Source: Alphaproteobacteria bacterium (GTDB lineage Bacteria; Pseudomonadota; Alphaproteobacteria; UBA7887). From it: 64,000 nt of DNA. Below are positions 4,865 through 61,405 of this stretch, one piece after another (within the stretch, counting starts at the first letter, position 1; the number at the start of each line of letters is the position of its first letter). The DNA lies in assembly GCA_965216755.1 (NCBI GenBank), contig CBDCGL010000011.1, positions 4,179,482 through 4,243,481 on the forward strand, read 5' to 3'. The translations under genes and the position numbers were made by a program. The notes beneath the pieces are model-generated. The model ran no database searches. It worked only from the letters and a program-made list of their open reading frames with translations, and was not told where the DNA came from.

Positions 4865-6127
4865 ATGGACGGCGCGCAGCCACCAACCGGTTCTGCTGAC
4901 AAACCGACTCTGCGGCGCAGCCTGTCTTTGCCGCTGCTCGTCCTGTTTGGACTGGGCACGACCATCGGAGCCGGTATTTATGTGTTGCTGGGCGAGGTCG
5001 TCGGGCGCGCTGGGGTCTTCGCCGCGGTAGCGTTTTTGGTTGCATCGGTACTCGCCGGAATCAGCGGTTTCAGTTTCGCGGAGCTGTCAGCGCGTTTTCC
5101 GCGCAGTGCGGGCGAAGCGCTCTACGTGCGTCATGGCCTAAATTCGCGGACATTGGCATTGGTGGTTGGGCTGATGGTGGTCTTTGCCGGCTCGGTGTCG
5201 TCGGCGGCCATCGTCCACGGGTTTGCCGGTTATGCGCGTGAGGTGGTCGACCTTCCCCGCGACCCCATCGTTGTCGCGGCTATAATCGCGCTGGGCGCCG
5301 TGACCGTGTGGGGTATACGAGAGTCTGTTTCTTTGGCGGCGATCCTGACGGCATTCGAAATCGCCGGATTGGTGCTGGTGATTGGCGCCGGCGCGTGGGC
5401 GGTGAGTACTCACGGGCCGGTTGTCCAGACCGAGACATTCAGCTCCTTAGGCGCGGCGGGGCTGGGCATTGGCAGTGCCGCCGTTTTGGCGTTTTACGCG
5501 TTTATTGGGTTCGAGGATCTGGTCAACGTTGCCGAAGAGGTTCGCGACGTGGAACACGCCATGCCACGGGCCATCCTCTGGACGCTGGCGGCGACCCTGG
5601 TCCTGTATGTCGCTGTCGCGTTGGTGGCTGTCGCGGTGGCGCCGATCGATGGATTGCGCGCCAGTGAGGCCCCGCTTGCCTACGTATTTGTCATGGCCAG
5701 CGGGCGTTCCGGCGCGGTGATCGTTGCGATCGGGCTGTTTGCGGTGGTCAATGGGGCGCTGATCCAAATGATCATGGCGTCGCGTGTGCTTTATGGGCTG
5801 TCGGCTTTGGGTTGGTTACCGGGGCCGTTCGGTCGGATTTACCCGCGCACCCGTACGCCTGTCGTTGCGACAGTGTTTGTTGTCGGCGTTATGACAGTGC
5901 TCGCGCTGTGGTTGCCGCTGGTACGGTTGGCTGAATTGACGTCGATCGCGACGTTGATAATTTTCACGCTCGTCAATCTGGCACTTTGGCGACTCAAGCG
6001 CCAGGCTGTGCCGGCGGACGCCGCAACCGCCCGGCCGCGCTTCACGGTGCCGATTTGGGTGCCGGTTCTGGGCAGCATTGTCAGCGCGGGATTCGTCGTA
6101 TACGGGGTTTGGGCTTACCTGTTGTAA
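4865..6127 (+). CDS. APC-family amino acid permease.
   Basis: The 420-aa protein has about 12 TM helices and the FGLGTTIGAGIYVLLGEV signature of the amino acid/polyamine/organocation superfamily. Confidence 0.8.
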   Translation: MDGAQPPTGSADKPTLRRSLSLPLLVLFGLGTTIGAGIYVLLGEVVGRAGVFAAVAFLVASVLAGISGFSFAELSARFPRSAGEALYVRHGLNSRTLALVVGLMVVFAGSVSSAAIVHGFAGYAREVVDLPRDPIVVAAIIALGAVTVWGIRESVSLAAILTAFEIAGLVLVIGAGAWAVSTHGPVVQTETFSSLGAAGLGIGSAAVLAFYAFIGFEDLVNVAEEVRDVEHAMPRAILWTLAATLVLYVAVALVAVAVAPIDGLRASEAPLAYVFVMASGRSGAVIVAIGLFAVVNGALIQMIMASRVLYGLSALGWLPGPFGRIYPRTRTPVVATVFVVGVMTVLALWLPLVRLAELTSIATLIIFTLVNLALWRLKRQAVPADAATARPRFTVPIWVPVLGSIVSAGFVVYGVWAYLL

Positions 6128-34795: not shown

Positions 34796-35747
34796 TCAGA
34801 CGCGCGGTGGCAACAATCGGATTGCCGAACATGCGCGCCGCGCGATCGCCGTTCATCACCCAGGCGCTGTCGGCTTCGGCATAGGCAAAAATCGGTGCGT
34901 TGCCGATTAGGGCGCCGAAAGCTTGGGCCAGGGCGCGGATACTGACGATTTCAGGAGACGTGATATTGAGCGGCGCGGTCGGCTGCGTGCAGTGGTTCAA
35001 TGCCCGTAAGATCTGGCTGCTCGCATCGCCTTGCCAGATGATCGATACATGGCCGGTGGTCAAGTCGATAGGTTGCCGATCGCGCACTTTGCACGCGATT
35101 TCGTGGAACACGCCATACCGCATGTCGATGGCGTAGGCCAAACGAATGAGCCGACCGGCATTGCCGTAGCGCGCCGAGGCATGTTGGAACATGCGTTCGC
35201 GGCCAAGGCAGCCATTGGCATATTCGCCGGGCGGTGCCGGCACAAGATCTTCGGTTGCGCCGCCGCCGGCCACCGGAGAAAACGGATAAACGCAGAGCGT
35301 TGAAAACGCGACGACCCGCGACCCGCGAAATATTTCCGCCACCATTGCCGGCACAAGCACATTCATGGCCCAGCTGAACGGCTCGTCACCGGTGGTCCCA
35401 AACTTGCGGCCCGCCATGAAAATGACGTTGGCAAGGCGCGGTAAGGCGGCGAGCTGATCTTGGTCCAGCAAATCGCAGGCGATCGTCTCAATGTTCCACG
35501 ATTCCAACCGCGAGCGCAGCTGCGGATCCGTGAAGCGCGCGACGCCAACAACCCGCTTGTCGGGTGCGGCGCGCTTGGCCAGACGCGCCAGTGTCGGGCC
35601 GACCTTGCCGGCGACGCCGAGAATAAGCAGATCGCCATCCAACGTCGCCAGGTCGTCGATCAAGGCCTGGCTCGGCCGCGACAGCAACTCTTCCAGCGCA
35701 TCGACGCTTTCGATTCGGTCCGGTAGCGTTTCGGCAGAAAGCAACAT
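34710..35747 (-). CDS. NAD-dependent epimerase/dehydratase family protein, paralog A.
   Basis: It shows the Rossmann motif ILGVAGKVGPTL and 3-beta-HSD/epimerase-like architecture, and is about 55% identical to the neighbouring gene. Confidence 0.6.
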   Translation of the reverse strand: MLLSAETLPDRIESVDALEELLSRPSQALIDDLATLDGDLLILGVAGKVGPTLARLAKRAAPDKRVVGVARFTDPQLRSRLESWNIETIACDLLDQDQLAALPRLANVIFMAGRKFGTTGDEPFSWAMNVLVPAMVAEIFRGSRVVAFSTLCVYPFSPVAGGGATEDLVPAPPGEYANGCLGRERMFQHASARYGNAGRLIRLAYAIDMRYGVFHEIACKVRDRQPIDLTTGHVSIIWQGDASSQILRALNHCTQPTAPLNITSPEIVSIRALAQAFGALIGNAPIFAYAEADSAWVMNGDRAARMFGNPIVATARLIEWTADWVTHDRPSYGKPTAYESRDGRF

Positions 35748-35749
35748 GG

Positions 35750-36781
35750 TCAAAACACGCCGTCGCGCACGGCGAAATGTGTTGGTTTGTCGATGGTCGC
35801 GCCGCCGCGCGCGATCCAATCGGCGGTCCAATCGATCATGCGCCGCAGCGGCACGGATGGATAGCCGAATAACCGCGCGGCTTGGCTGGTGTTTACCAAC
35901 CATGCATCGGTGGCTTCGCGGCCGCTCAAGACCGGCTCTTTGTCAAAGGCCGCGCCAAATACATGCGCCAGCCAACGCACCGACACCGTTTCCGGGCCGC
36001 TGATGTTCAGCGGCGCGATCGGCGTTGTGCAGTGACCGAGCGCGCGCAAGGCTTGGCTCGCCGCATCGCCTTGCCAGATGACATTGACATGGCCCGTGGT
36101 GAGGTCCACCGGTCGACCTTCGAAGACCGCCTTGGCCACGTCGTGCAGCACGCCATACCGCATGTCGATGGCGTAGTTCAAACGCAGCAACCGCCCCGAC
36201 GTTCCATGGCGTGCCGAGTGAAATTGGAAGAGTCGCTCGCGGGCGACGCACGACCATCCATAGTCGCCGGGTGGCGGTTCGAGTGCTGTGGCTTCGGTCG
36301 CACCGCCACTCCCAACATCAACATACGGATAAACGCAACCGGTTGAAAAGGCGACGATGCGCGATTCGCGGAATGCGTTGGCGACCATTGCGGCAACCCG
36401 CGCGTTTGTCGCCCATGTTTCGCCAGGGCCTTGAGCCGAACCGAATTTCCGCCCCGCCATGAAGATGACGTTTGCCACTTTCGGCAGCGATCGCAATTGT
36501 TCGCCATCGGCAAGATCGCACACGATAGTCTCGATTCCGGACTCCTCCAGGGCGCTCCGGGTTCGTCCGTCCGTGAACCGGGCAACGCCCAACACATGCT
36601 TGCGCGGCGCCGCCTGCTTTGCCAATTGCGCCAATGTCGGTCCGATTTTGCCGCCGACGCCGAGGATCAGAATGTCGCCGTCGATCGCGTCTAGCTCGGC
36701 GGTCAAGGTCGACGATGGCCGGGACAGAACCCGATCCAGTTCCACTTCGGATTTCAGTGTGTCGGGCAGGGCATCTGTCAT
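35750..36781 (-). CDS. NAD-dependent epimerase/dehydratase family protein, paralog B.
   Basis: It carries ILGVGGKIGPTL and is a tandem duplicate of the gene at 34710-35747. Confidence 0.6.
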   Translation of the reverse strand: MTDALPDTLKSEVELDRVLSRPSSTLTAELDAIDGDILILGVGGKIGPTLAQLAKQAAPRKHVLGVARFTDGRTRSALEESGIETIVCDLADGEQLRSLPKVANVIFMAGRKFGSAQGPGETWATNARVAAMVANAFRESRIVAFSTGCVYPYVDVGSGGATEATALEPPPGDYGWSCVARERLFQFHSARHGTSGRLLRLNYAIDMRYGVLHDVAKAVFEGRPVDLTTGHVNVIWQGDAASQALRALGHCTTPIAPLNISGPETVSVRWLAHVFGAAFDKEPVLSGREATDAWLVNTSQAARLFGYPSVPLRRMIDWTADWIARGGATIDKPTHFAVRDGVF

Positions 36782-46766: not shown

Positions 46767-47573
46767 TTACCACTCGAACGCTGGCGACTCGAACTCCAGG
46801 CCTTTGTTGTCGCGTGCGCGCACTTGGACGTTCTGCTTTAGCTCCGGCATGTCGACCGTGATGATCGGGTCAGAGGCCATGGCCGCCCGCGTTACAACTT
46901 CCATCACGACACCGTCGCTATCCGTGACTTCGACCTTTTCGACGTAATACGCTTCTATCAGGTCACCATCGTCGCCGACGGCAAATCCGGTATCCATCGG
47001 GTGCACAATACGAAATTTCAGCCGCTCTTGCCCGTCGCGGTCATATTTGCGCACCGCAATGTCACCGAGCATCCGGTTGCCTTCGGAGTCGACGGTCCAA
47101 TCGCCGGGTACCGAACAGCCGCCCGGGGTCAACACGTTCACCCACTGAGAGCCGATATGCCACACGCCGTCATCGGTTTTTACGCCGGCACGAACGGCGG
47201 TCGACATTTCCAGGCGAATCTTAAGGCCGAGCGATTCGATCGACCGATGTGGCATCAGTCGGGCGATATGCTGGATCGGGTTATTTTCCGCCACAACCAT
47301 GATTTCGGTGACGGTGCCAAGCTCAGGCGACAAATAAATGGCCAGCGGTACATCCGCGCTGTCTTCGACGTCTTGCGGCAAAATCACCTCAACGCCATCG
47401 TCGAAAATGACATCGCCATCCGCGTAAAACGTCTCGCGCACGTCCGGCCAAACCGGTGTGTCCAGCGGGTCAACCAAGAAATTTTGCGCATTGGCCACGC
47501 TGCCAAATGTTGCCGGCACCAAGATACCGCACATCAACCATCGTAAATGTCTGCGCATAAGTGTCACCCTCAA
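46767..47573 (-). CDS. Secreted SoxY/SoxZ-like fusion protein, candidate quinoprotein dehydrogenase-associated carrier.
   Basis: It has a signal peptide and a mid-protein GGC motif (TPGGCSV) that resembles the SoxY carrier Cys, followed by a SoxZ-like beta region. Confidence 0.4.
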   Translation of the reverse strand: MRVTLMRRHLRWLMCGILVPATFGSVANAQNFLVDPLDTPVWPDVRETFYADGDVIFDDGVEVILPQDVEDSADVPLAIYLSPELGTVTEIMVVAENNPIQHIARLMPHRSIESLGLKIRLEMSTAVRAGVKTDDGVWHIGSQWVNVLTPGGCSVPGDWTVDSEGNRMLGDIAVRKYDRDGQERLKFRIVHPMDTGFAVGDDGDLIEAYYVEKVEVTDSDGVVMEVVTRAAMASDPIITVDMPELKQNVQVRARDNKGLEFESPAFEW

Positions 47574-47834: not shown

Positions 47835-48671
47835 TCAGCGGGCGCGCTTCAGGGCTGCCGTCGACAAGTCATTTTCCGAGATGCCGGTACGGAACTCATA
47901 GCCGTCATAGGCGAGTTCGGTGCGCTTGCCGGTTTGATGATTGATCATTTCCATTCGGTTTGGGCGCCAATACTGATCGAGATACTGCACGTAATCTTCG
48001 AAGGTCAGTGTTTTCAGCAGATCGTCCTTGCGGTCATAGAAATCGACTTTGATGATTCGATACTCTGCTTGATCGATCCAGGCGACCCGCCGGGTATACC
48101 CTGAATGTTCGTAAAGCGGATATTGTTCGACCACGAAGCAGTTGAAGTCGCCACAAGGTTCGTCGCGCAACCATTTATACGTGTATTTGCCAACCTCTTG
48201 AGATGACAGATCTTCATAGGCGAACTCGCTGCCGACAAACGGCCCAGATTTGTTGGCGGATGATATTCTTTTGACGCGCTTTAGGGCCGGCAAATAGAGC
48301 CATTGGTCGTCAGGGTCGGTTATATGGGTGAAGCTCAGGAAGGCCGTACCTTTGACATCCGCCGGACGATCAAACACGGTCAGGCTCTTGTCACCTTGGG
48401 CGCGGTCCGGCACTTCCAGAGTCTTGATGCGCAGTTCGCGGGTGCTGGTTTCCCCTTGACGGTTGTGCAAGACCATTCGCAGCGTCACTTCGGAATCGCC
48501 AAAACCGGCGTCGCGCAAGTCGGCTTCCTCCGCAATTGCCAGCCCTTTTTCCTCCGGCGTTTGTGCGCTGGCAATATGTGCCCCGCCCAACGCCAGGGCC
48601 ACGGCGCCAATGGCGACGCGCGCTTGCCTAAACAGGCGCTGTGACGGAATCGGGTTTTTCTTGAGGTACAT
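47835..48671 (-). CDS. Outer-membrane lipoprotein-sorting (LolA-like) family protein.
   Basis: It has a signal peptide and is the partner gene of the RND/MMPL transporter. It overlaps the RND gene end by 44 nt. Confidence 0.55.
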   Translation of the reverse strand: MYLKKNPIPSQRLFRQARVAIGAVALALGGAHIASAQTPEEKGLAIAEEADLRDAGFGDSEVTLRMVLHNRQGETSTRELRIKTLEVPDRAQGDKSLTVFDRPADVKGTAFLSFTHITDPDDQWLYLPALKRVKRISSANKSGPFVGSEFAYEDLSSQEVGKYTYKWLRDEPCGDFNCFVVEQYPLYEHSGYTRRVAWIDQAEYRIIKVDFYDRKDDLLKTLTFEDYVQYLDQYWRPNRMEMINHQTGKRTELAYDGYEFRTGISENDLSTAALKRAR

Positions 48672-50985
48672 GCTGTTCTCTCTCCATGGTGATCAAAACA
48701 GGCGGTAGGAAAAGGAAATCGGCCAACAGCGCGAAGCCGATGGTGATCGCGGTCAGCAAGCCCATCCAGGCGTTGAGCATGAAGGTGGATTGCGACAACA
48801 CCAAGAACCCGGCTATTAGCACGACCGACGTCACCCACAAGGCCGTCCCCACCGTGTGGAAGGCGTAGCGGACCGAGTCCGACGGGCTGGCGTCGCGTTC
48901 GCGACGTGCGCGCAAATACTTGCTCAAGAAGTGAATGGTGAAGTCGACAACAATGCCCAGGCTCATCGCCGTCACAATCGAAATGGCAACATTGGCTTCG
49001 CCGACGATCAAGCCCCACAAACCGAACGCCATCAACGCCGGCACTAGATTGGGGAATAGGCTGATCACGCCAAATTTGACCGATCGCAACGCCAGGATGA
49101 GCGACAGCGAAATAAGAATAAGCGCCGCGGTGGTCCCGAACAGCATGCTCTCGATGTTTCGTTTCGAGATGTAGGCGAACATGACGAAGGAGCCGGTTGC
49201 CGAACTGCGCATATGTTCGGGCGCATTGGCAGCCAGCCACGCATCCGCGCGCCCCGTTAACGCGCGCACTTCGCGCGTGCTGATGGCGTCCGTGGTGATC
49301 ACCAACCTAGCCGCCGACTTATCGACATTGACCTGGTTGTTCAAGTCCAGCCCATAGGGCAGGGACATCTCATAGAGCAATAAATATTGCGCGGCCAATT
49401 GACGATCATCGGGCAAGCGATACCAATCTTGATCGTCGCCATGCATGCTCTTGTTCAGACGCTTCATGATATCGGTCAAGCTGTTGACGTGCACGACACC
49501 CGGTTGCTCTCGATACCAATTGGCGAACGCCTCCAGCACCGCGAGATATTCCGGATCCGCGACGCCGCCGCTGTCTTTGGCCGCCAGCGAGTATTCCACC
49601 GCATAGATCCCCGACAGCTTCTCAGCTGCAAAATCGGTATCCGCGCGAAATTCGATGGCCGGATCGAAATACTGAACAAACCGGTCGTTGAGATCGATAC
49701 GCGGGATAAACGCCGCAAGGCCAATAATCAAAAGTCCGATGACGACGATTAACGGCGTCCGACGGGCGACGACAAATTCCGCTAAGCGATCCATGGCTGT
49801 CGTTTGCGCGCCTTTGCGCACCCGCACCCGCATTGGCATGATGTCCAGGAACACAGGCAGAAAGAAGACCGAATAAACGTAGGCCGCTACGACCCCCATT
49901 GCCGTGATATTGCCCAGATGCGCGAATGGTGGGGCGTCGCTGGCGTTCATGCTCAGAAAGCCGATCACGGTGGTCAAGCTTGTCAGGAACACCGGCTGCA
50001 TATTGAGGCGCAGCGATTCAACAATCGCATCGCGTTTGGTCGCGCCGCCACGCATTTCCGCCAGCATGGTCACCAAAATGTGCACACTGTCGGCAATCGC
50101 CAGCGTCATGATGATGATCGGCGCGCTGGCACTGGGCGCCGTGAGCGGGATGTTGAGCCACCCGGCCAGCCCCATCGCCGAGCCGGCGGAAAAGATGATG
50201 ATCAACACCGTGCCGAGCGTGCCGGCCGTCGAGCGGAACAACAGCGCGATCGCCAGCACGATAATGCCAAACATAATCGGGATCAGGGTTGCTGAATCGC
50301 GTTGGCTCGACTCCGGGAAGGCATTGTTGAGCATGACGATCCCGGTCAAGTAAATCCGGACTTCGGGATATTGTGCTTCAATCTTGGCGGCAAGCTCGCG
50401 GGCGAAATGGGCGGCCTTGGGCACCTCGGCGATTTCTTTGCCGGGCAATTGCAGGGTGACGTTGACCGCCGTCACGTCGGTTGTCTCGCGAATGAGGCGA
50501 TCGCGCAGCAAAGGTTCGGCCAATGCGATGTCGCGTGCAGCCGCGATTTCGTCCGGCGTCCGCGCCCCCGCGTTTTGAACAAGATCGGCGACCACCAAGT
50601 CGTCGCCGTCAGCGGCGGTGTGTTGGTAGTTGGTGAGCGAATCAACCCGGATCGAGTATGGGACTTGCCATGCCTCTTCGGTCAGCGTTTCCACTGCCGC
50701 CAAAGTTTGCGGCGTGAAGACGTCTTCGTCGCGCGGTGCAATCACGAAAAGAATGTTGTCATTCTTGGTGTAGCGTGCCTGCAAGGCCTCGAAGGCCTGC
50801 AATTGTGGGTTTTCGTCGCTGAAGAAAACCCGGTAATTGTTGACGAAAATCAGCCGCTGCGCGCCCATGAATGTGGCGACAACCATTACCAAAGTTAGCG
50901 CTAAGACGATCCATCGCCATCGCAAAATGGTTTGGGCGTAAGAAACGGTCAGTCGGTCGGCGCGCGATAGTTCGCTTTTAGCCAT
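48628..50985 (-). CDS. RND-superfamily exporter of the MMPL / HpnN-like family.
   Basis: Twelve TM helices and two large periplasmic loops make up 785 aa. The start at MAKSEL lies 2 nt after the tetR stop. Confidence 0.75.
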   Translation of the reverse strand: MAKSELSRADRLTVSYAQTILRWRWIVLALTLVMVVATFMGAQRLIFVNNYRVFFSDENPQLQAFEALQARYTKNDNILFVIAPRDEDVFTPQTLAAVETLTEEAWQVPYSIRVDSLTNYQHTAADGDDLVVADLVQNAGARTPDEIAAARDIALAEPLLRDRLIRETTDVTAVNVTLQLPGKEIAEVPKAAHFARELAAKIEAQYPEVRIYLTGIVMLNNAFPESSQRDSATLIPIMFGIIVLAIALLFRSTAGTLGTVLIIIFSAGSAMGLAGWLNIPLTAPSASAPIIIMTLAIADSVHILVTMLAEMRGGATKRDAIVESLRLNMQPVFLTSLTTVIGFLSMNASDAPPFAHLGNITAMGVVAAYVYSVFFLPVFLDIMPMRVRVRKGAQTTAMDRLAEFVVARRTPLIVVIGLLIIGLAAFIPRIDLNDRFVQYFDPAIEFRADTDFAAEKLSGIYAVEYSLAAKDSGGVADPEYLAVLEAFANWYREQPGVVHVNSLTDIMKRLNKSMHGDDQDWYRLPDDRQLAAQYLLLYEMSLPYGLDLNNQVNVDKSAARLVITTDAISTREVRALTGRADAWLAANAPEHMRSSATGSFVMFAYISKRNIESMLFGTTAALILISLSLILALRSVKFGVISLFPNLVPALMAFGLWGLIVGEANVAISIVTAMSLGIVVDFTIHFLSKYLRARRERDASPSDSVRYAFHTVGTALWVTSVVLIAGFLVLSQSTFMLNAWMGLLTAITIGFALLADFLFLPPVLITMEREQHVPQEKPDSVTAPV

Positions 50986-50987
50986 GG

Positions 50988-51593
50988 CTATCTCGCTTTC
51001 AAGCTTCCCAAATAGTGGATCAAACCGGCGACGCAAGCCTCGATAACGTCTGGCCGCCGTGACGCCTTGATGGCGCCGATGCTGCCCTCCACAGCGGCAA
51101 TGAAAAAGGTAGCGGTTTGTGTCGGATCGATGTCTGGGCGCACCTCTCCGGCGTTCTGGCCTTCCGCGATGGCTTCGGCTAGGCGTCTCTGCCAGATCGT
51201 GAATACATCACAAAGATGCGCCCGAAACTCGTCGTCAATCGGCGACATCTCTTGGGCCAAATTGTTCAACGGACAGCCGAGCGCCACGGTTTCCGGTGTT
51301 GCTTCTGCCGCAGCCGCCTTGACCCGTGCGATGAGGGAATCGATGACACCGCCACCGGTCGACGGCGCCTCCAGCCAGTCGGCGAGCACGCGGTCGGCGA
51401 TCACCTCGTCTATGACCGCCAATCCGAGATGTCGCTTGGTCGGAAAATGATGATAAAGGGCTCCCTTTGTCACCCCCGTCCGCGCCAAGATCTCGGTCAT
51501 GCTCGCGGCCTGAAATCCCTTTCGATGGATCTCGTGGAACGCCGCATCCAACAGGGCTTGTCGGGTGGCTTGTGGATTGTAGGCAGCGGGCAT
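50988..51593 (-). CDS. TetR/AcrR family transcriptional regulator.
   Basis: The HTH region reads ATRQALLDAAFHEIHRKGFQAASMTEILARTGVTKGALYHHF. The start at 51593 is chosen by alignment logic, and the ORF extends to 51680. Confidence 0.7.
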   Translation of the reverse strand: MPAAYNPQATRQALLDAAFHEIHRKGFQAASMTEILARTGVTKGALYHHFPTKRHLGLAVIDEVIADRVLADWLEAPSTGGGVIDSLIARVKAAAAEATPETVALGCPLNNLAQEMSPIDDEFRAHLCDVFTIWQRRLAEAIAEGQNAGEVRPDIDPTQTATFFIAAVEGSIGAIKASRRPDVIEACVAGLIHYLGSLKAR

Positions 51594-51744
51594 GGAACCA
51601 AAGCGTATACATTCATACCTGTCGGTATGATTCATCAGAACACGATGTCCGTCAATCGGATTACGAAATGGTGAAGTCAAACGCGCATGTCAGGCGGCCA
51701 AGAAAGCGCGTCTAGGGCCGGTTGGCCAACTTCAGCTGTGGGAC

Positions 51745-52031
51745 ACCGTGGTCAACCGCGCATCGCCCGTTCGGGCGATGGCTGACGACTGTGGGGGCGG
51801 TCAACGGATCATCGCCCGTTCGGGCGATGGTTGACGACTGTGAGGGCGGTCAACGGATCATCGCCCGTTCGGGCGATGGTTGACGACTGTGAGGGCGGTC
51901 AACGGATCATCGCCCGTTCGGGCGATGGTTGACGACTGTGAGGGCGGTCAACGGATCATCGCCCGTTCGGGCGATGGTTGACGACTGTGAGGGCGGTCAA
52001 CGGATCATCGCCCGTTCGGGCGATGGTTGAC
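51745..52031. repeat. Tandem array of about 5.8 copies of a 49-bp unit, each holding two inverted repeats.
   Basis: The unit GGTCAACGGATCATCGCCCGTTCGGGCGATGGTTGACGACTGTGAGGGC repeats with period 49, starting at 51799, 51848, 51897, 51946 and 51995, with a degenerate first copy near 51750. Each unit holds the palindrome ATCGCCCG-TT-CGGGCGAT and a GTTGAC/GTCAAC pair. No spacers separate the copies. Confidence 0.9.
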
Positions 52032-52032
52032 C

Positions 52033-53211
52033 TTAGTACCTTCGAACTGCCCCTTTGTTTTCCAATGAACCAATCACGGGGACGCCGAGCACAGCTTCGG
52101 CGACTTCCGGTCGCTCCACGCGGTGATTGAAATACTGCCGCAAAAAGGCGATCAGTAGCGATAGGACGAAGCCGCCGATCATGGCAATCTTTATGTAAAA
52201 GATGCGCGAGTGATTGGGCCGTGCAGGCGCCGAGGCATATTCGATGATCTGCACGTTGATGAGATTTTCGGGTACTGCCTCGCGGGCACGCTCTTGCTCG
52301 TAGCGGTCTCGATAGTCCAAAAAGATCGTCTCTTGAGCACTGATCCGGACGTTCAGATCGTTGATGGTTGATTGCCGTGACTCAAGCCCGCGCAAATCGC
52401 GGTTGCGCGCAGTCAGTTCGGTTTCCTGCGCGGTGATCGAATCAGTGATGGCCGTCACACGCGGATGGTCATTGGAATAAAGCGACAAAAGCTCCGATCG
52501 TTCGGTGTTGAGCGTTGCAATGCGATCACGAATGCGGCCCACTTCCCGAAGCAGTTCGGCCTTGGCTTCTTCGGGCGAGGTCACCGAATGTTCGGCCATA
52601 TAATCCGACAGCAACTGCCGCAGCCGATCCAATTCGATCGAGGCCTCCTCCAGCTTGGTCTCGAAATATTTGCTTGCGCCGCGCGAGTTCACCAACGAGC
52701 TGCGATAAGCGATATACGACTCCGTCACCGCATTGACGATTAGCATGGCCAAGTTCGGATCACGACTGCCATAAGAAATTGTCATGATGTTCGAATCGAC
52801 GATGGGTTTGATCTTGATATCGTCGGTGAGATTCTCAATCCAGGCTTCGCGCGGCGGCACGGCCGTACGCAAGCCCAAGCGTTCCATGAGTGACGGCTTC
52901 TCGGCGCCCAACGGGTTGCCGCTGTCACCGGCATTCTGTGGAATGAATTCATCGACAACGGCTTCGATCACCGGTCGCGACCGAACAATCTCGATCTCGG
53001 TGTTCATGGCTTCAGCCATTTCCGGAACGGTCGTCAGTGGCCCGGTGATAATCGGTGCTTTGGTCCGTTCAACCAAAACCGTGCCGCTGGCGATATAGGC
53101 GGGCGGCCTGAAATAGGTCAGTACGGTTACGATCGCGACCACAAACACCCACCAGCCGAGGATGCTGCTCTTATAGCGAAACAGAAACCATAGAATGTCG
53201 CGTTTGGTCAT
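52033..53211 (-). CDS. Polysaccharide chain-length determinant / co-polymerase (Wzz/GumC/EpsF-like), without a kinase domain.
   Basis: Two TM helices flank a long coiled-coil periplasmic domain in 392 aa. The motif near the C-terminal TM (GGFVLSLLIAFLRQY) is present. Confidence 0.7.
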   Translation of the reverse strand: MTKRDILWFLFRYKSSILGWWVFVVAIVTVLTYFRPPAYIASGTVLVERTKAPIITGPLTTVPEMAEAMNTEIEIVRSRPVIEAVVDEFIPQNAGDSGNPLGAEKPSLMERLGLRTAVPPREAWIENLTDDIKIKPIVDSNIMTISYGSRDPNLAMLIVNAVTESYIAYRSSLVNSRGASKYFETKLEEASIELDRLRQLLSDYMAEHSVTSPEEAKAELLREVGRIRDRIATLNTERSELLSLYSNDHPRVTAITDSITAQETELTARNRDLRGLESRQSTINDLNVRISAQETIFLDYRDRYEQERAREAVPENLINVQIIEYASAPARPNHSRIFYIKIAMIGGFVLSLLIAFLRQYFNHRVERPEVAEAVLGVPVIGSLENKGAVRRY

Positions 53212-53303: not shown

Positions 53304-54524
53304 TCAATAGAAAAAACTCGGAATTGGGAAATCTCTCTTGTTCAAAACCACACTGCTCAACGTCAGCGTGGCGTTGCTCAGCTCGTCGCGTAGCCGCTCG
53401 ATCGCTTGGACGGTCGTGCGTTGGGTATCGATCACCAAAATCACCTGTGTTGAAACACTGGCCCAACGATAAGGCGTGTCCGTGCTTAGGGCGCCTGCAT
53501 CCACAACAACAACGTCATAGCGATTGCGTAAGTTCTCAAATGTATCCGACCAACCGTTTTCATAAGGAAAGCGGCCGTCCGCGCCATTGGCCAACGCCAT
53601 CGCGTCGACGCCCCAATTGTCGATTTTAATGACGTTATCGTCATCGACGAGATTCGCCGGATCTTTGATCGGCGTCGGTCCACTACCCGGCAAACGCTGG
53701 GTCAGCCGATTGCCGTTTTCGGCCGCATCCACCAACAAGATTCGGTCGTCGCCGTTGCGTGCAAACGAGCGAGCCAGCCCACCGGCGACCGTTGACACGC
53801 CTTCGCCGGGCGTGCGGGATGTCAGCACGATCACAATCGCGCCACGCCGCTCGCTGTAATCATTTGCCGCAGCAATTATCCGTAGCCGAATTGAATCAAA
53901 AACTTTCTCGATCCGCTGAACGCGTCGGCTGACGCGACGCGGGCGCGACCGCTCCCGACGGCTGGGCGCAATCTTCTTGGTCCGCAGGTCAATTCCCGCT
54001 GCCGCTTCGGTGTCGCGGCTCCTTGTCGGTGTCGAAGGCACCTCGGCCACGAGTCCCTGACCGCTGCCGGGTTCGGTCGCGAACGGTTTGATCGTCGGAC
54101 GTTCTGCCACCAACGGCTTGGTCGCGCGGCCATTGGGTTTTTCATCGCCCGACGCCGCAGTCGTCTTCAACTCAGGGCGCTCGGCAATCAGTGGTGTCGG
54201 TGCATCGCTACGCTGTTTTTTTTCAGGTTTCGTTTGGGAACTATCGAATTGCGCGAGAATGCGGGCAACGCGCAGATCGCCGGCTTGGCGCGATTTGTTG
54301 CAATTGGCGTGGACGAGCGCGAAGTTGGCAGGTTCGTCCTTACCGCCCTCGCGAATTGGTTCAACATGCTCGATATGCAGCGACGCGTCGTCGTTATCGG
54401 TCGCCTCGGCAACATCGATCGGCTTGCCGCACAAATAACAGGTGCCGTTTTGGCGATTCGCTAGCCCTTGAACAAGGTCTTTGCGCTCAGATCCAGAAAG
54501 GCCTTTTAGGTACTGAGATCCCAT
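53304..54524 (-). CDS. Fusion protein with an N-terminal HNH endonuclease motif, a low-complexity linker, and a C-terminal BY-kinase/ParA-like P-loop domain whose Walker A is degenerate.
   Basis: The HNH motif reads CYLCGKPID...LHIEHVEPIREGG...NFALVHANCNKSR. The C-terminal IVLTSRTPGEGVSTVAGG is the BY-kinase Walker A with Lys replaced by Val. YDVVVVDAGAL is Walker-B-like. It is a single 406-aa ORF. Confidence 0.6.
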   Translation of the reverse strand: MGSQYLKGLSGSERKDLVQGLANRQNGTCYLCGKPIDVAEATDNDDASLHIEHVEPIREGGKDEPANFALVHANCNKSRQAGDLRVARILAQFDSSQTKPEKKQRSDAPTPLIAERPELKTTAASGDEKPNGRATKPLVAERPTIKPFATEPGSGQGLVAEVPSTPTRSRDTEAAAGIDLRTKKIAPSRRERSRPRRVSRRVQRIEKVFDSIRLRIIAAANDYSERRGAIVIVLTSRTPGEGVSTVAGGLARSFARNGDDRILLVDAAENGNRLTQRLPGSGPTPIKDPANLVDDDNVIKIDNWGVDAMALANGADGRFPYENGWSDTFENLRNRYDVVVVDAGALSTDTPYRWASVSTQVILVIDTQRTTVQAIERLRDELSNATLTLSSVVLNKRDFPIPSFFY

Positions 54525-57451: not shown

Positions 57452-57489
57452 CCGAAAAATAAGGTCCGGCACAGTTGCTGTGCCGGACC
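57452..57489 (-). terminator. Rho-independent terminator downstream of the Wza-like gene.
   Basis: On the minus strand, GGTCCGGCACAG pairs with CTGTGCCGGACC around the loop gcaa, and TTATTTTT follows. Confidence 0.7.
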
Positions 57490-57514
57490 CATATGATGAA
57501 GCCGTTTGTTCGGT

Positions 57515-61369: not shown

Positions 61370-61405
61370 AAGCCGCGCCACGAAGGTGCGGCGCGGCCCG
61401 AGGGA
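61370..61405 (-). terminator. Terminator-like hairpin with a T-run, read on the minus strand, with no obvious CDS upstream of it.
   Basis: The stem GCCGCGCC pairs with GGCGCGGC. On the minus strand it is followed by TTTTTTTT. Confidence 0.4.

Follow-up and report, generated by a model that had tools for sequence, protein, structure and literature searches.

What is a row of near-identical 49-bp palindromic repeats doing between a Wzz-like chain-length gene and the promoter of a tetR gene in an alphaproteobacterial genome? An earlier note on this DNA implied that the array was functionally tied to the TetR regulator, which heads an operon with an RND transporter and a LolA-like protein. We analyzed the array together with the 64-kb stretch in which it lies (64,000 nucleotides, hereafter the window). 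The explanation that we favor, and consider reasonably probable, is that the array is a locally amplified, REP-like stem-loop minisatellite in the 3′ untranslated region of the wzz-like gene, with any function most likely exerted at the RNA level.

Extent and periodicity of the array

Tandem Repeats Finder (TRF) run on the whole window described the array as having a period of 49 bp and 5.8 copies (a copy number read from one assembly), with 97% matches, zero indels, and a score of 529. Each of the remaining tandem repeats in the window scored at most 48. The previously reported unit of 49 bp in about 5.8 head-to-tail copies was thus reproduced and is statistically unambiguous. The start reported at that time, 51745, lies 5 nt to the left of the TRF boundary at 51750, which is immaterial. 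The array contains six hairpins and five linkers, all in direct orientation (Table 1).

Using an exact-copy search, we found four full copies with 100% identity to the consensus (51799-51994), followed by a terminal partial copy of 37 nt that was also identical to the consensus (51995-52031). Together, these give perfect periodicity over 233 bp. The copies had been described as essentially identical, which holds for these 233 bp but not for the edge copy next to tetR (51750-51798), which differs from the consensus at 5 of 49 positions. Recent slippage or unequal exchange typically leaves identical internal copies beside a diverged edge copy, and the earlier proposal of recent expansion or concerted evolution fits this arrangement. 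Three of the five changes in the diverged copy are adjacent to one another and may represent a single event. Immediately to the left of the array, the short match CTGTGGG may be a relic of one more linker.

Each unit carries a palindrome, which had been given as 8+2+8. It was found in all six units, but its true extent is 9+2+9 (CATCGCCCG TT CGGGCGATG). All six occurrences of the 18-nt sequence ATCGCCCGTTCGGGCGAT in the 64-kb window fall within the array, 49 bp apart; 0.25 matches were expected by chance, and 12 matches were reached in none of 100 shuffles. The second inverted pair noted before, GTCAAC/GTTGAC, was also recovered, as an outer pair in the unit.

At one edge, the array indeed abuts the Wzz-like gene, as only 1 nt lies between its end at 52031 and the stop codon (52035..52033, minus strand). 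At the other edge, the distance to tetR is 156 nt when the homolog-backed start (ATG 51593) is used and 114 nt with the start of the source annotation (ATG 51635), in keeping with the approximately 150 bp stated earlier. The period of 49 is not a multiple of three, and, as read from the sequence, TGA interrupts two of the unit's three reading frames on the minus strand. The only coding potential consisted of ORFs of 30-53 aa made by the repeat itself, which gave no family hits. The array is non-coding.

Table 1. Coordinates of the array, its hairpins, and neighboring features in the window
Feature	Position	Strand	Basis
Tandem array of direct 49-bp repeats (5.8 copies)	51750..52031	− (sense strand of both flanking genes)	TRF, exact-copy search
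Hairpin 1 (in transcription order), truncated unit, 1 nt past the wzz-like stop	51996..52031	−	−23.6 kcal/mol, 97% of ensemble
Hairpin 2, consensus unit	51947..51982	−	RNA fold and identical copy
Hairpin 3, consensus unit	51898..51933	−	Identical copy; consensus fold
Hairpin 4, consensus unit	51849..51884	−	Identical copy; consensus fold
Hairpin 5, consensus unit	51800..51835	−	Identical copy; consensus fold
Hairpin 6, diverged tetR-proximal unit	51751..51786	−	−22.7 kcal/mol, 5 substitutions in unit
Possible degenerate remnant of an extra linker	51736..51749	−	CTGTGGG (51736-51742), 7-nt match to first-copy linker; weak
Promoter-like site for tetR, TTGACG-17-AATCAT	51627..51655	−	Sole promoter-like site in 51400-52300
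Candidate TetR operator TCATACC-TGTC-GGTATGA, core CATAC-N6-GTATG (51614-51629)	51613..51630		Overlaps −10; conserved in L082-L086
Wzz-like (PCP/EpsF-like) chain-length determinant gene, 392 aa, C-terminus intact	52033..53211	−	Pfam Wzz, NCBIfam EpsF partial hits
tetR-family regulator, 201 aa from ATG 51593	50988..51593	−	Pfam TetR_N and TetR_C_13, N-terminal alignment
MMPL/HAE3-type RND transporter gene, start codon uncertain	48628..51036	−	Domain hits; same order in L085
LolA-like lipoprotein-sorting-type gene, third in operon	47835..48671	−	Pfam LolA_like, 220 bits; same order in L085

Predicted structure of the repeat unit

Read on the minus strand, the unit has the order GCCCUCACAGUC–GUCAAC–CAUCGCCC–GAAC–GGGCGAUG–AUCC–GUUGAC–C, which corresponds to a C-rich linker of 12-13 nt and a 14-bp bulged hairpin. 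In this hairpin, a 6-bp outer stem is followed by an 8-bp inner stem with a GAAC loop, and a 4-nt bulge lies on the 3′ side. With a length of 36-37 nt, it is a short GC-rich stem-loop of the kind that characterizes REPs. The outer arms flank the inner palindrome asymmetrically, with an offset of 4 nt on one side and none on the other, which argues for a bulge in a hairpin rather than the symmetry of a protein site on duplex DNA.

The RNA fold of the consensus unit was predicted at −21.2 kcal/mol and made up 92% of the ensemble (z = −4.0). Folded as DNA, the hairpin reached −13 kcal/mol. The RNA fold of the whole array gave z = −9.75. In hairpin 1, G51995 and C52032 add a 15th pair.

The substitutions in the diverged unit fall in the bulge (three), the linker (one), and the outer stem (one); the outer-stem change yields G-U on the minus-strand RNA versus A-C on the plus strand. 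In this one copy, all five leave the minus-strand hairpin paired (P = 0.039 under random substitution), a pattern that points weakly to the transcribed (minus) strand. The minus-strand RNA of the array contains 109 C versus 73 G. A search of Rfam 15 returned nothing at the gathering score. The best match was CC3664, with 26.4 bits against a cut-off of 60, together with miRNA-precursor models, and these sub-threshold alignments, in which bases were paired across different units, are generic hairpin look-alikes.

Search for further copies of the unit

The window represents 1.3% of the 4.85-Mb source genome, and 63.7 kb of it lies outside the array. No unit was detected in this remainder by a pattern search allowing 3 mismatches, by blastn-short, or by an nhmmer profile. 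Comparing the window with itself by BLAST revealed no dispersed repeat family, the sole match being a paralogous gene pair, and no tagged REP-type hairpin family was present within the window.

Beyond the window, we searched for the 21-nt core, with the loop given as NN, in 185,579 species-representative genomes. Only 77 singletons in unrelated taxa were obtained, and in their flanks at most 12 of 28 positions agreed with the unit, as expected by chance. In JGI metagenomes, a 26-mer gave 0 hits and a 21-mer gave 3 unrelated singletons, while viral contigs contained one unrelated match to the core. A blastn search of plasmids and phages gave no match to the unit. As far as the accessible sequence goes, the unit is private to this locus.

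A Poisson estimate indicated that a family of at least 300 units would leave the 63.7 kb empty with P ~0.02. For a family of 20-100 units, 0.3-1.3 copies would be expected there, and zero were seen. The absence of copies therefore speaks against a high-copy family but would agree with a family of 20-100 units. A high-copy genome-wide REP family is unlikely.

Flanking genes and the terminator position

Domain hits agreed with the gene identities proposed before (Wzz-like, TetR, RND, and LolA-like), and all four genes lie on the minus strand. The Wzz-like ORF scored 25.0 bits against Pfam Wzz, just below the cut-off of 25.5, and gave partial NCBIfam hits to EpsF/chain-length models. Its protein aligns to the final residue with nine homologs (…KGAVRRY vs …KRAIRHY), which ruled out that the gene had been truncated by the array. 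The closest Wzz-like homologs are 53% identical and are followed by different downstream genes, and both tetR and the array are missing there. Other exopolysaccharide genes (Poly_export, GNAT/FemAB-like, and epimerase) lie upstream of the Wzz-like gene. A neighboring HNH protein consists of an HNH domain fused to a BY-kinase-like partner of the Wzz-like protein, and no link between it and the array was found.

The tetR start at ATG 51593 is backed by the N-termini of homologs; from ATG 51635, as in the source annotation, the protein would have 215 aa. The start codon of the MMPL/RND gene is uncertain because the listed ORF overlaps the end of tetR. Proteins of the source genome form singleton clusters, the collections contain no second isolate, and the nearest relatives are distant. 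The Wzz-like and TetR proteins share 53-55% identity with those of the closest relatives. For a PQQ dehydrogenase the value is 78%, and its best named matches were uncultured Alphaproteobacteria and Rhodospirillaceae.

No terminator-like site was found in 51400-52300, a region that includes the wzz-tetR gap. The hairpins are followed by GCCCUCAC..., and none is followed by a U-tract; an intrinsic terminator was ruled out on this ground. Canonical terminators occur elsewhere in the window, at 57490..57462 (13-bp stem and T-tract) and 61399..61370 (12-bp stem and T7). The locus L085 carries the same tetR-MMPL-LolA-like operon in the same gene order, and its equivalent position is taken by a canonical terminator in which UUUUGG follows a 14-bp stem. 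Judged by position, the array occupies the slot that a normal terminator fills in the orthologous L085.

A candidate operator at the tetR promoter

The promoter scan of 51400-52300, which covered the sigma-70 consensus only, returned the single tetR site listed in Table 1. The palindrome CATAC-N6-GTATG at this promoter occurs once in the 64-kb window, against 0.01 expected. We found the same motif upstream of the TetR homologs in all homolog loci, which represent three independent locus types (L082/L083, L084, and L085/L086) and encode TetR proteins that are 47-52% identical. In these loci, a TTGACA-type −35 is followed by the motif, and the −10 (CATACT) lies inside its left half-site. Autoregulated TetR operators are classically arranged in this way, as a palindrome overlapping the −10 of the regulator's own promoter. 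CATAC-N6-GTATG is thus a candidate operator for TetR autoregulation.

The 49-bp unit does not contain CATAC-N6-GTATG and is absent from L082-L086, and the tetR −35 hexamer lies 94 nt downstream of the array. With a distinct conserved palindrome at the −10, a unit that lacks the motif, and a distance of at least 94 nt from the −35, the array unit was rejected as the TetR operator. As far as sequence tells, the array is not the TetR operator, and the functional tie implied in the earlier note is not supported. Two of the homologous tetR loci also have short tandem repeats beside the tetR promoter, and the 49-bp unit showed no similarity to these CTGGACGCAG repeats.

Alternative explanations

We weighed several other accounts of the array. 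It could be one grouped cluster of a genome-wide REP family, possibly mobilized by a RAYT-type transposase, which we consider unlikely. A GC-rich 37-nt stem-loop less than 20 bp from the 3′ end of the upstream ORF, between co-directional genes and reiterated with its flank, is what such families look like (PMC3733652). The host also appears to belong to the alphaproteobacteria, the group in which CGTC-type REPs, with 8-9-bp stems starting with AT and 4-5-nt loops, are commonest (PMC3733652). Here, ATCGCCC forms part of the inner stem, the loop closed by this stem has 4 nt, and a CGTC is found on the minus strand immediately 5′ of the hairpin. However, 3-4 nt separate this CGTC from the inner stem and it reaches into the paired outer stem, whereas the tag of the family is terminal and unpaired. 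Families of merely 20-100 units exist (PMC3733652), and with such a family the lack of extra copies in the window would be compatible. Against this account, the core occurred only as unrelated singletons in species genomes, metagenomes, and viral contigs; the head-to-tail arrangement is rare among REPs (PMC3733652); and no transposase is present among the annotated ORFs of the window.

The array might instead be a row of duplex-DNA sites for TetR, another dimeric regulator, or a nucleoid protein, with copy number tuning expression. The perfect 9+2+9 palindrome in each unit is typical of dimeric helix-turn-helix sites, and both the nearby tetR promoter and the tandem repeats at two homologous tetR loci would suit such a role. 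This reading is nevertheless quite improbable, as the different conserved palindrome overlapping the −10 accounts for TetR autoregulation and the unit shares nothing with that palindrome or with the repeats of the homologs. In addition, a spacing of 49 bp was calculated to equal 4.7 helical turns, so that neighboring sites would not lie on the same face of the helix. The nested outer arms, with their uneven offset, suit a hairpin and not a symmetric duplex site, and the substitutions spare pairing rather than any particular half-site. A functional repeated RNA, such as a type III toxin-antitoxin-like antitoxin in 49-nt units, a protein sponge, or a small-RNA precursor, seems highly improbable. 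The units are near-identical and strongly structured, and 49 nt and 5.8 copies are in or just above the ranges of ToxI/CptI/TenpI (31-62 nt and 1.9-5.6 copies; PMC3401426). However, neither flank of the array contains a toxin-like ORF: the downstream gene is tetR, and the small ORFs nearby gave no Pfam or PADLOC hit. Moreover, the sigma-70 consensus scan found no promoter-like site before the array, no terminator follows it, it abuts a stop codon, and its best Rfam match is of the generic hairpin type. An assembly artefact in the copy number or in the entire array is extremely improbable. Short reads do make it difficult to count identical 49-bp units over 282 bp (see PMC3635867 for MIRU loci), but the source is a single 4.85-Mb contig, which suggests long reads or a finished assembly. 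In addition, a mis-join would not be expected to leave a diverged edge copy or clean junctions with an intact stop codon.

Proposed origin and role

Under the favored explanation, a locally amplified stem-loop minisatellite in the wzz-like 3′ untranslated region, a single GC-rich stem-loop would originally have lain just after the wzz-like stop codon. This stem-loop, together with 12-13 nt of adjacent linker, would then have been amplified head-to-tail to give six hairpins, likely by replication slippage or unequal recombination. The amplification may have been recent, or homogeneity may have been maintained. Where neighboring genes run in the same direction, REPs are located no more than 20 bp from the 3′ end of the upstream ORF (PMC3733652), and REP clusters have been described as 'singletons reiterated in tandem along with flanking DNA' (PMC3733652, Di Nocera et al. 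2013).

Transcripts of the wzz-like gene would run into the array and carry it as their 3′ untranslated tail. The stable hairpins of the array (−21 to −24 kcal/mol each) could then block 3′-to-5′ exonucleases, by which the wzz 3′ end would be defined and stabilized. REP/BIME elements are reported to affect mRNA stability and attenuation (PMC3184786; PMC2267715). Judging from base composition, the C-rich single-stranded linkers may also favor factor-dependent (Rho) termination. Either effect would insulate the tetR-MMPL-LolA-like operon, whose own promoter and candidate operator lie 94 nt further on. In favor of this explanation we counted the substitutions that spare pairing, the position next to the stop codon, the terminator slot, and the C-rich RNA. 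The array probably serves as a 3′-end barrier or insulator, or it may simply be neutral.

A more ambitious version would make the array a functional, copy-number-tunable RNA module. It would be a graded Rho-loading/processing platform or a repeated RNA ligand for some protein that sets read-through from the exopolysaccharide operon into the tetR-MMPL-LolA-like operon, with slippage giving heritable switching between coupling states. We regard this as very improbable. The array would matter more only if its copy number tuned read-through from exopolysaccharide genes into the efflux operon. If the favored explanation is true, it is one more intergenic hairpin minisatellite, a possible VNTR typing marker for a poorly sampled alphaproteobacterial lineage, and a tidy example of an amplified 3′ stem-loop in the slot of a relative's terminator. 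The more useful by-product of the analysis is the candidate operator CATAC-N6-GTATG for a widespread, uncharacterized tetR-MMPL-LolA-like operon.

Comparison with known systems

Several known systems resemble the array in part. Like TetR-family operators, it places a perfect palindrome upstream of a tetR gene; unlike them, it is not conserved and lies at least 94 nt off, whereas the site of this clade is CATAC-N6-GTATG on the −10. Like intrinsic terminators, it puts a stable GC-rich hairpin directly past a stop codon at a transcription-unit boundary, but its hairpins have no U-tract after them and number six instead of one. A CRISPR array was rejected, because the 12-13-nt stretch between hairpins is itself repeated identically and 51799-52031 contains no unique sequence.

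Antitoxin arrays of type III toxin-antitoxin systems likewise consist of direct repeats that do not encode protein, and they resemble the present array in the length and number of their units, with 5.5 copies of 36 nt in ToxI and units of 39-57 nt in TenpI (PMC3401426). In those systems, the units are pseudoknots bound by the toxin, whereas the units here are simple hairpins. This locus also lacks a toxin gene and a promoter dedicated to the array, and the array is not separated from the downstream gene by a terminator. The repeats themselves would fit toxIN/cptIN/tenpIN, with 5.8 copies being marginally above the range, but this class was rejected for the toxin gene, terminator, and promoter.

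MIRU-type VNTRs of Mycobacterium tuberculosis are closer in setting. They are 40-100-bp tandem units in the spacers of co-oriented genes, are present in one to five or more copies, are thought to be transcribed with the flanking genes, and are expected to vary in copy number by slippage (PMC3635867). The 49-bp unit, in 5.8 copies between wzz-like and tetR genes that are both on the minus strand, corresponds to this description in size and setting. There is no sequence relationship, however, and a genome carries MIRUs at ~40 loci; a strong hairpin is not among their defining features.

Tagged REPs are defined by many dispersed copies per genome, from tens to thousands (PMC3733652); for the present unit, no dispersed copies were seen in the window, which covers 1.3% of the source genome, or in the databases. 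The unpaired terminal GTAG or CGTC tag of REPs is also missing here: the unit has no GTAG, and its single CGTC, at minus-strand positions 12-15, has three of its four bases inside the paired outer stem GTCAAC. The stem of CGTC-type REPs is 8-9 bp, compared with 14 bp and a bulge in this hairpin, and no RAYT gene lies near the array. REP dimers and BIMEs are mostly inverted, whereas all units here are direct. The E. coli-type BIME, which requires alternating orientation, was rejected, since the six units share the same orientation, bulge side, loop, and linker. What the array does share with REP clusters is the placement of short GC-rich stem-loops between genes of the same direction, a few nt past the upstream ORF, and tandem reiteration together with a piece of flanking DNA (PMC3733652). 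The exopolysaccharide (EPS) gene clusters of Thauera are flanked by REP arrays, and the array described here abuts an EPS chain-length gene. As with REP clusters, it is plausibly transcribed, giving RNA hairpins that could stabilize mRNA or attenuate transcription (PMC3184786, PMC2267715).

A candidate operator of the TetR clade

The palindrome CATAC-N6-GTATG was conserved upstream of the tetR gene of the window and upstream of the TetR homologs of three other loci (L082, L084, and L085). At L085, it was followed downstream by a tetR-MMPL-LolA-like operon, as in the window. From its sequence and placement, this palindrome is a candidate operator of an uncharacterised clade of TetR regulators.

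The source-genome annotation gives a TetR of 215 aa starting at 51635 (minus strand), which lies within the predicted promoter. Alignment with homologs instead supports a 201-aa protein starting at ATG 51593 (minus strand).

Short imperfect tandem repeats were also observed at two homologous tetR loci (L085 and L083), and those of both loci had the core CTGGACGCAG / CTGAGACGCAG in common. No CTGGACGCAG / CTGAGACGCAG repeats were detected in the tetR region of the window, and the short repeats of L085 and L083 showed no relationship to the 49-mer, the tandem unit of the window's array.

Features of the window and of the loci of TetR homologs (L082-L085)
Feature	Location	Strand	Remarks
Palindrome CATAC-N6-GTATG	window 51613-51630		overlaps -10 upstream of tetR
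Palindrome CATAC-N6-GTATG	L085 ~4950-4975		overlaps -10 upstream of TetR homolog
Palindrome CATAC-N6-GTATG	L084 ~4950-4975		overlaps -10 upstream of TetR homolog
Palindrome CATAC-N6-GTATG	L082 ~4875-4900		overlaps -10 upstream of TetR homolog
Imperfect tandem repeat, 16 nt x 3.2	L085 4880-4931		just upstream of -35
Imperfect tandem repeat, 17 nt x 3.8	L083 158-222		leader, operator-to-ATG; same sequence in L082
GATC sites in array	window 51807, 51856, 51905, 51954, 52003
Adjacent paralogous epimerase-family genes	window 34961-35665 and 36001-36708		67% nucleotide identity
Fused SoxY-SoxZ protein	window 46767-47573	minus	268 aa
HNH + BY-kinase/CbiA-like fusion protein	window 53304-54524	minus	406 aa; directly upstream of Wzz-like gene

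GATC content and other genes

GATC was approximately two-fold over-represented in the window, with 484 sites where its base composition predicts 233. One GATC lies in the hairpin bulge of every consensus array unit; the diverged copy has lost it.

The epimerase-family pair was the only dispersed similarity within the window. The SoxY-SoxZ fusion gene lies just downstream of the LolA-like gene, beside the gene of a metallo-beta-lactamase-fold protein.

The protein encoded upstream of the Wzz-like gene has an unusual architecture: residues ~8-100 form an HNH nuclease domain at the N-terminus, and a low-complexity linker of ~100 aa joins this to a BY-kinase/CbiA-like P-loop domain at the C-terminus (residues ~203-399). 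The Walker A motif of the P-loop domain looks degenerate; it reads TPGEGVST, without lysine. At the equivalent gene position, three homologous loci (L079-L081) encode standalone proteins of 210-221 aa rather than a fusion: those of L080 and L081 are CbiA-type, and that of L079 has no Pfam match.
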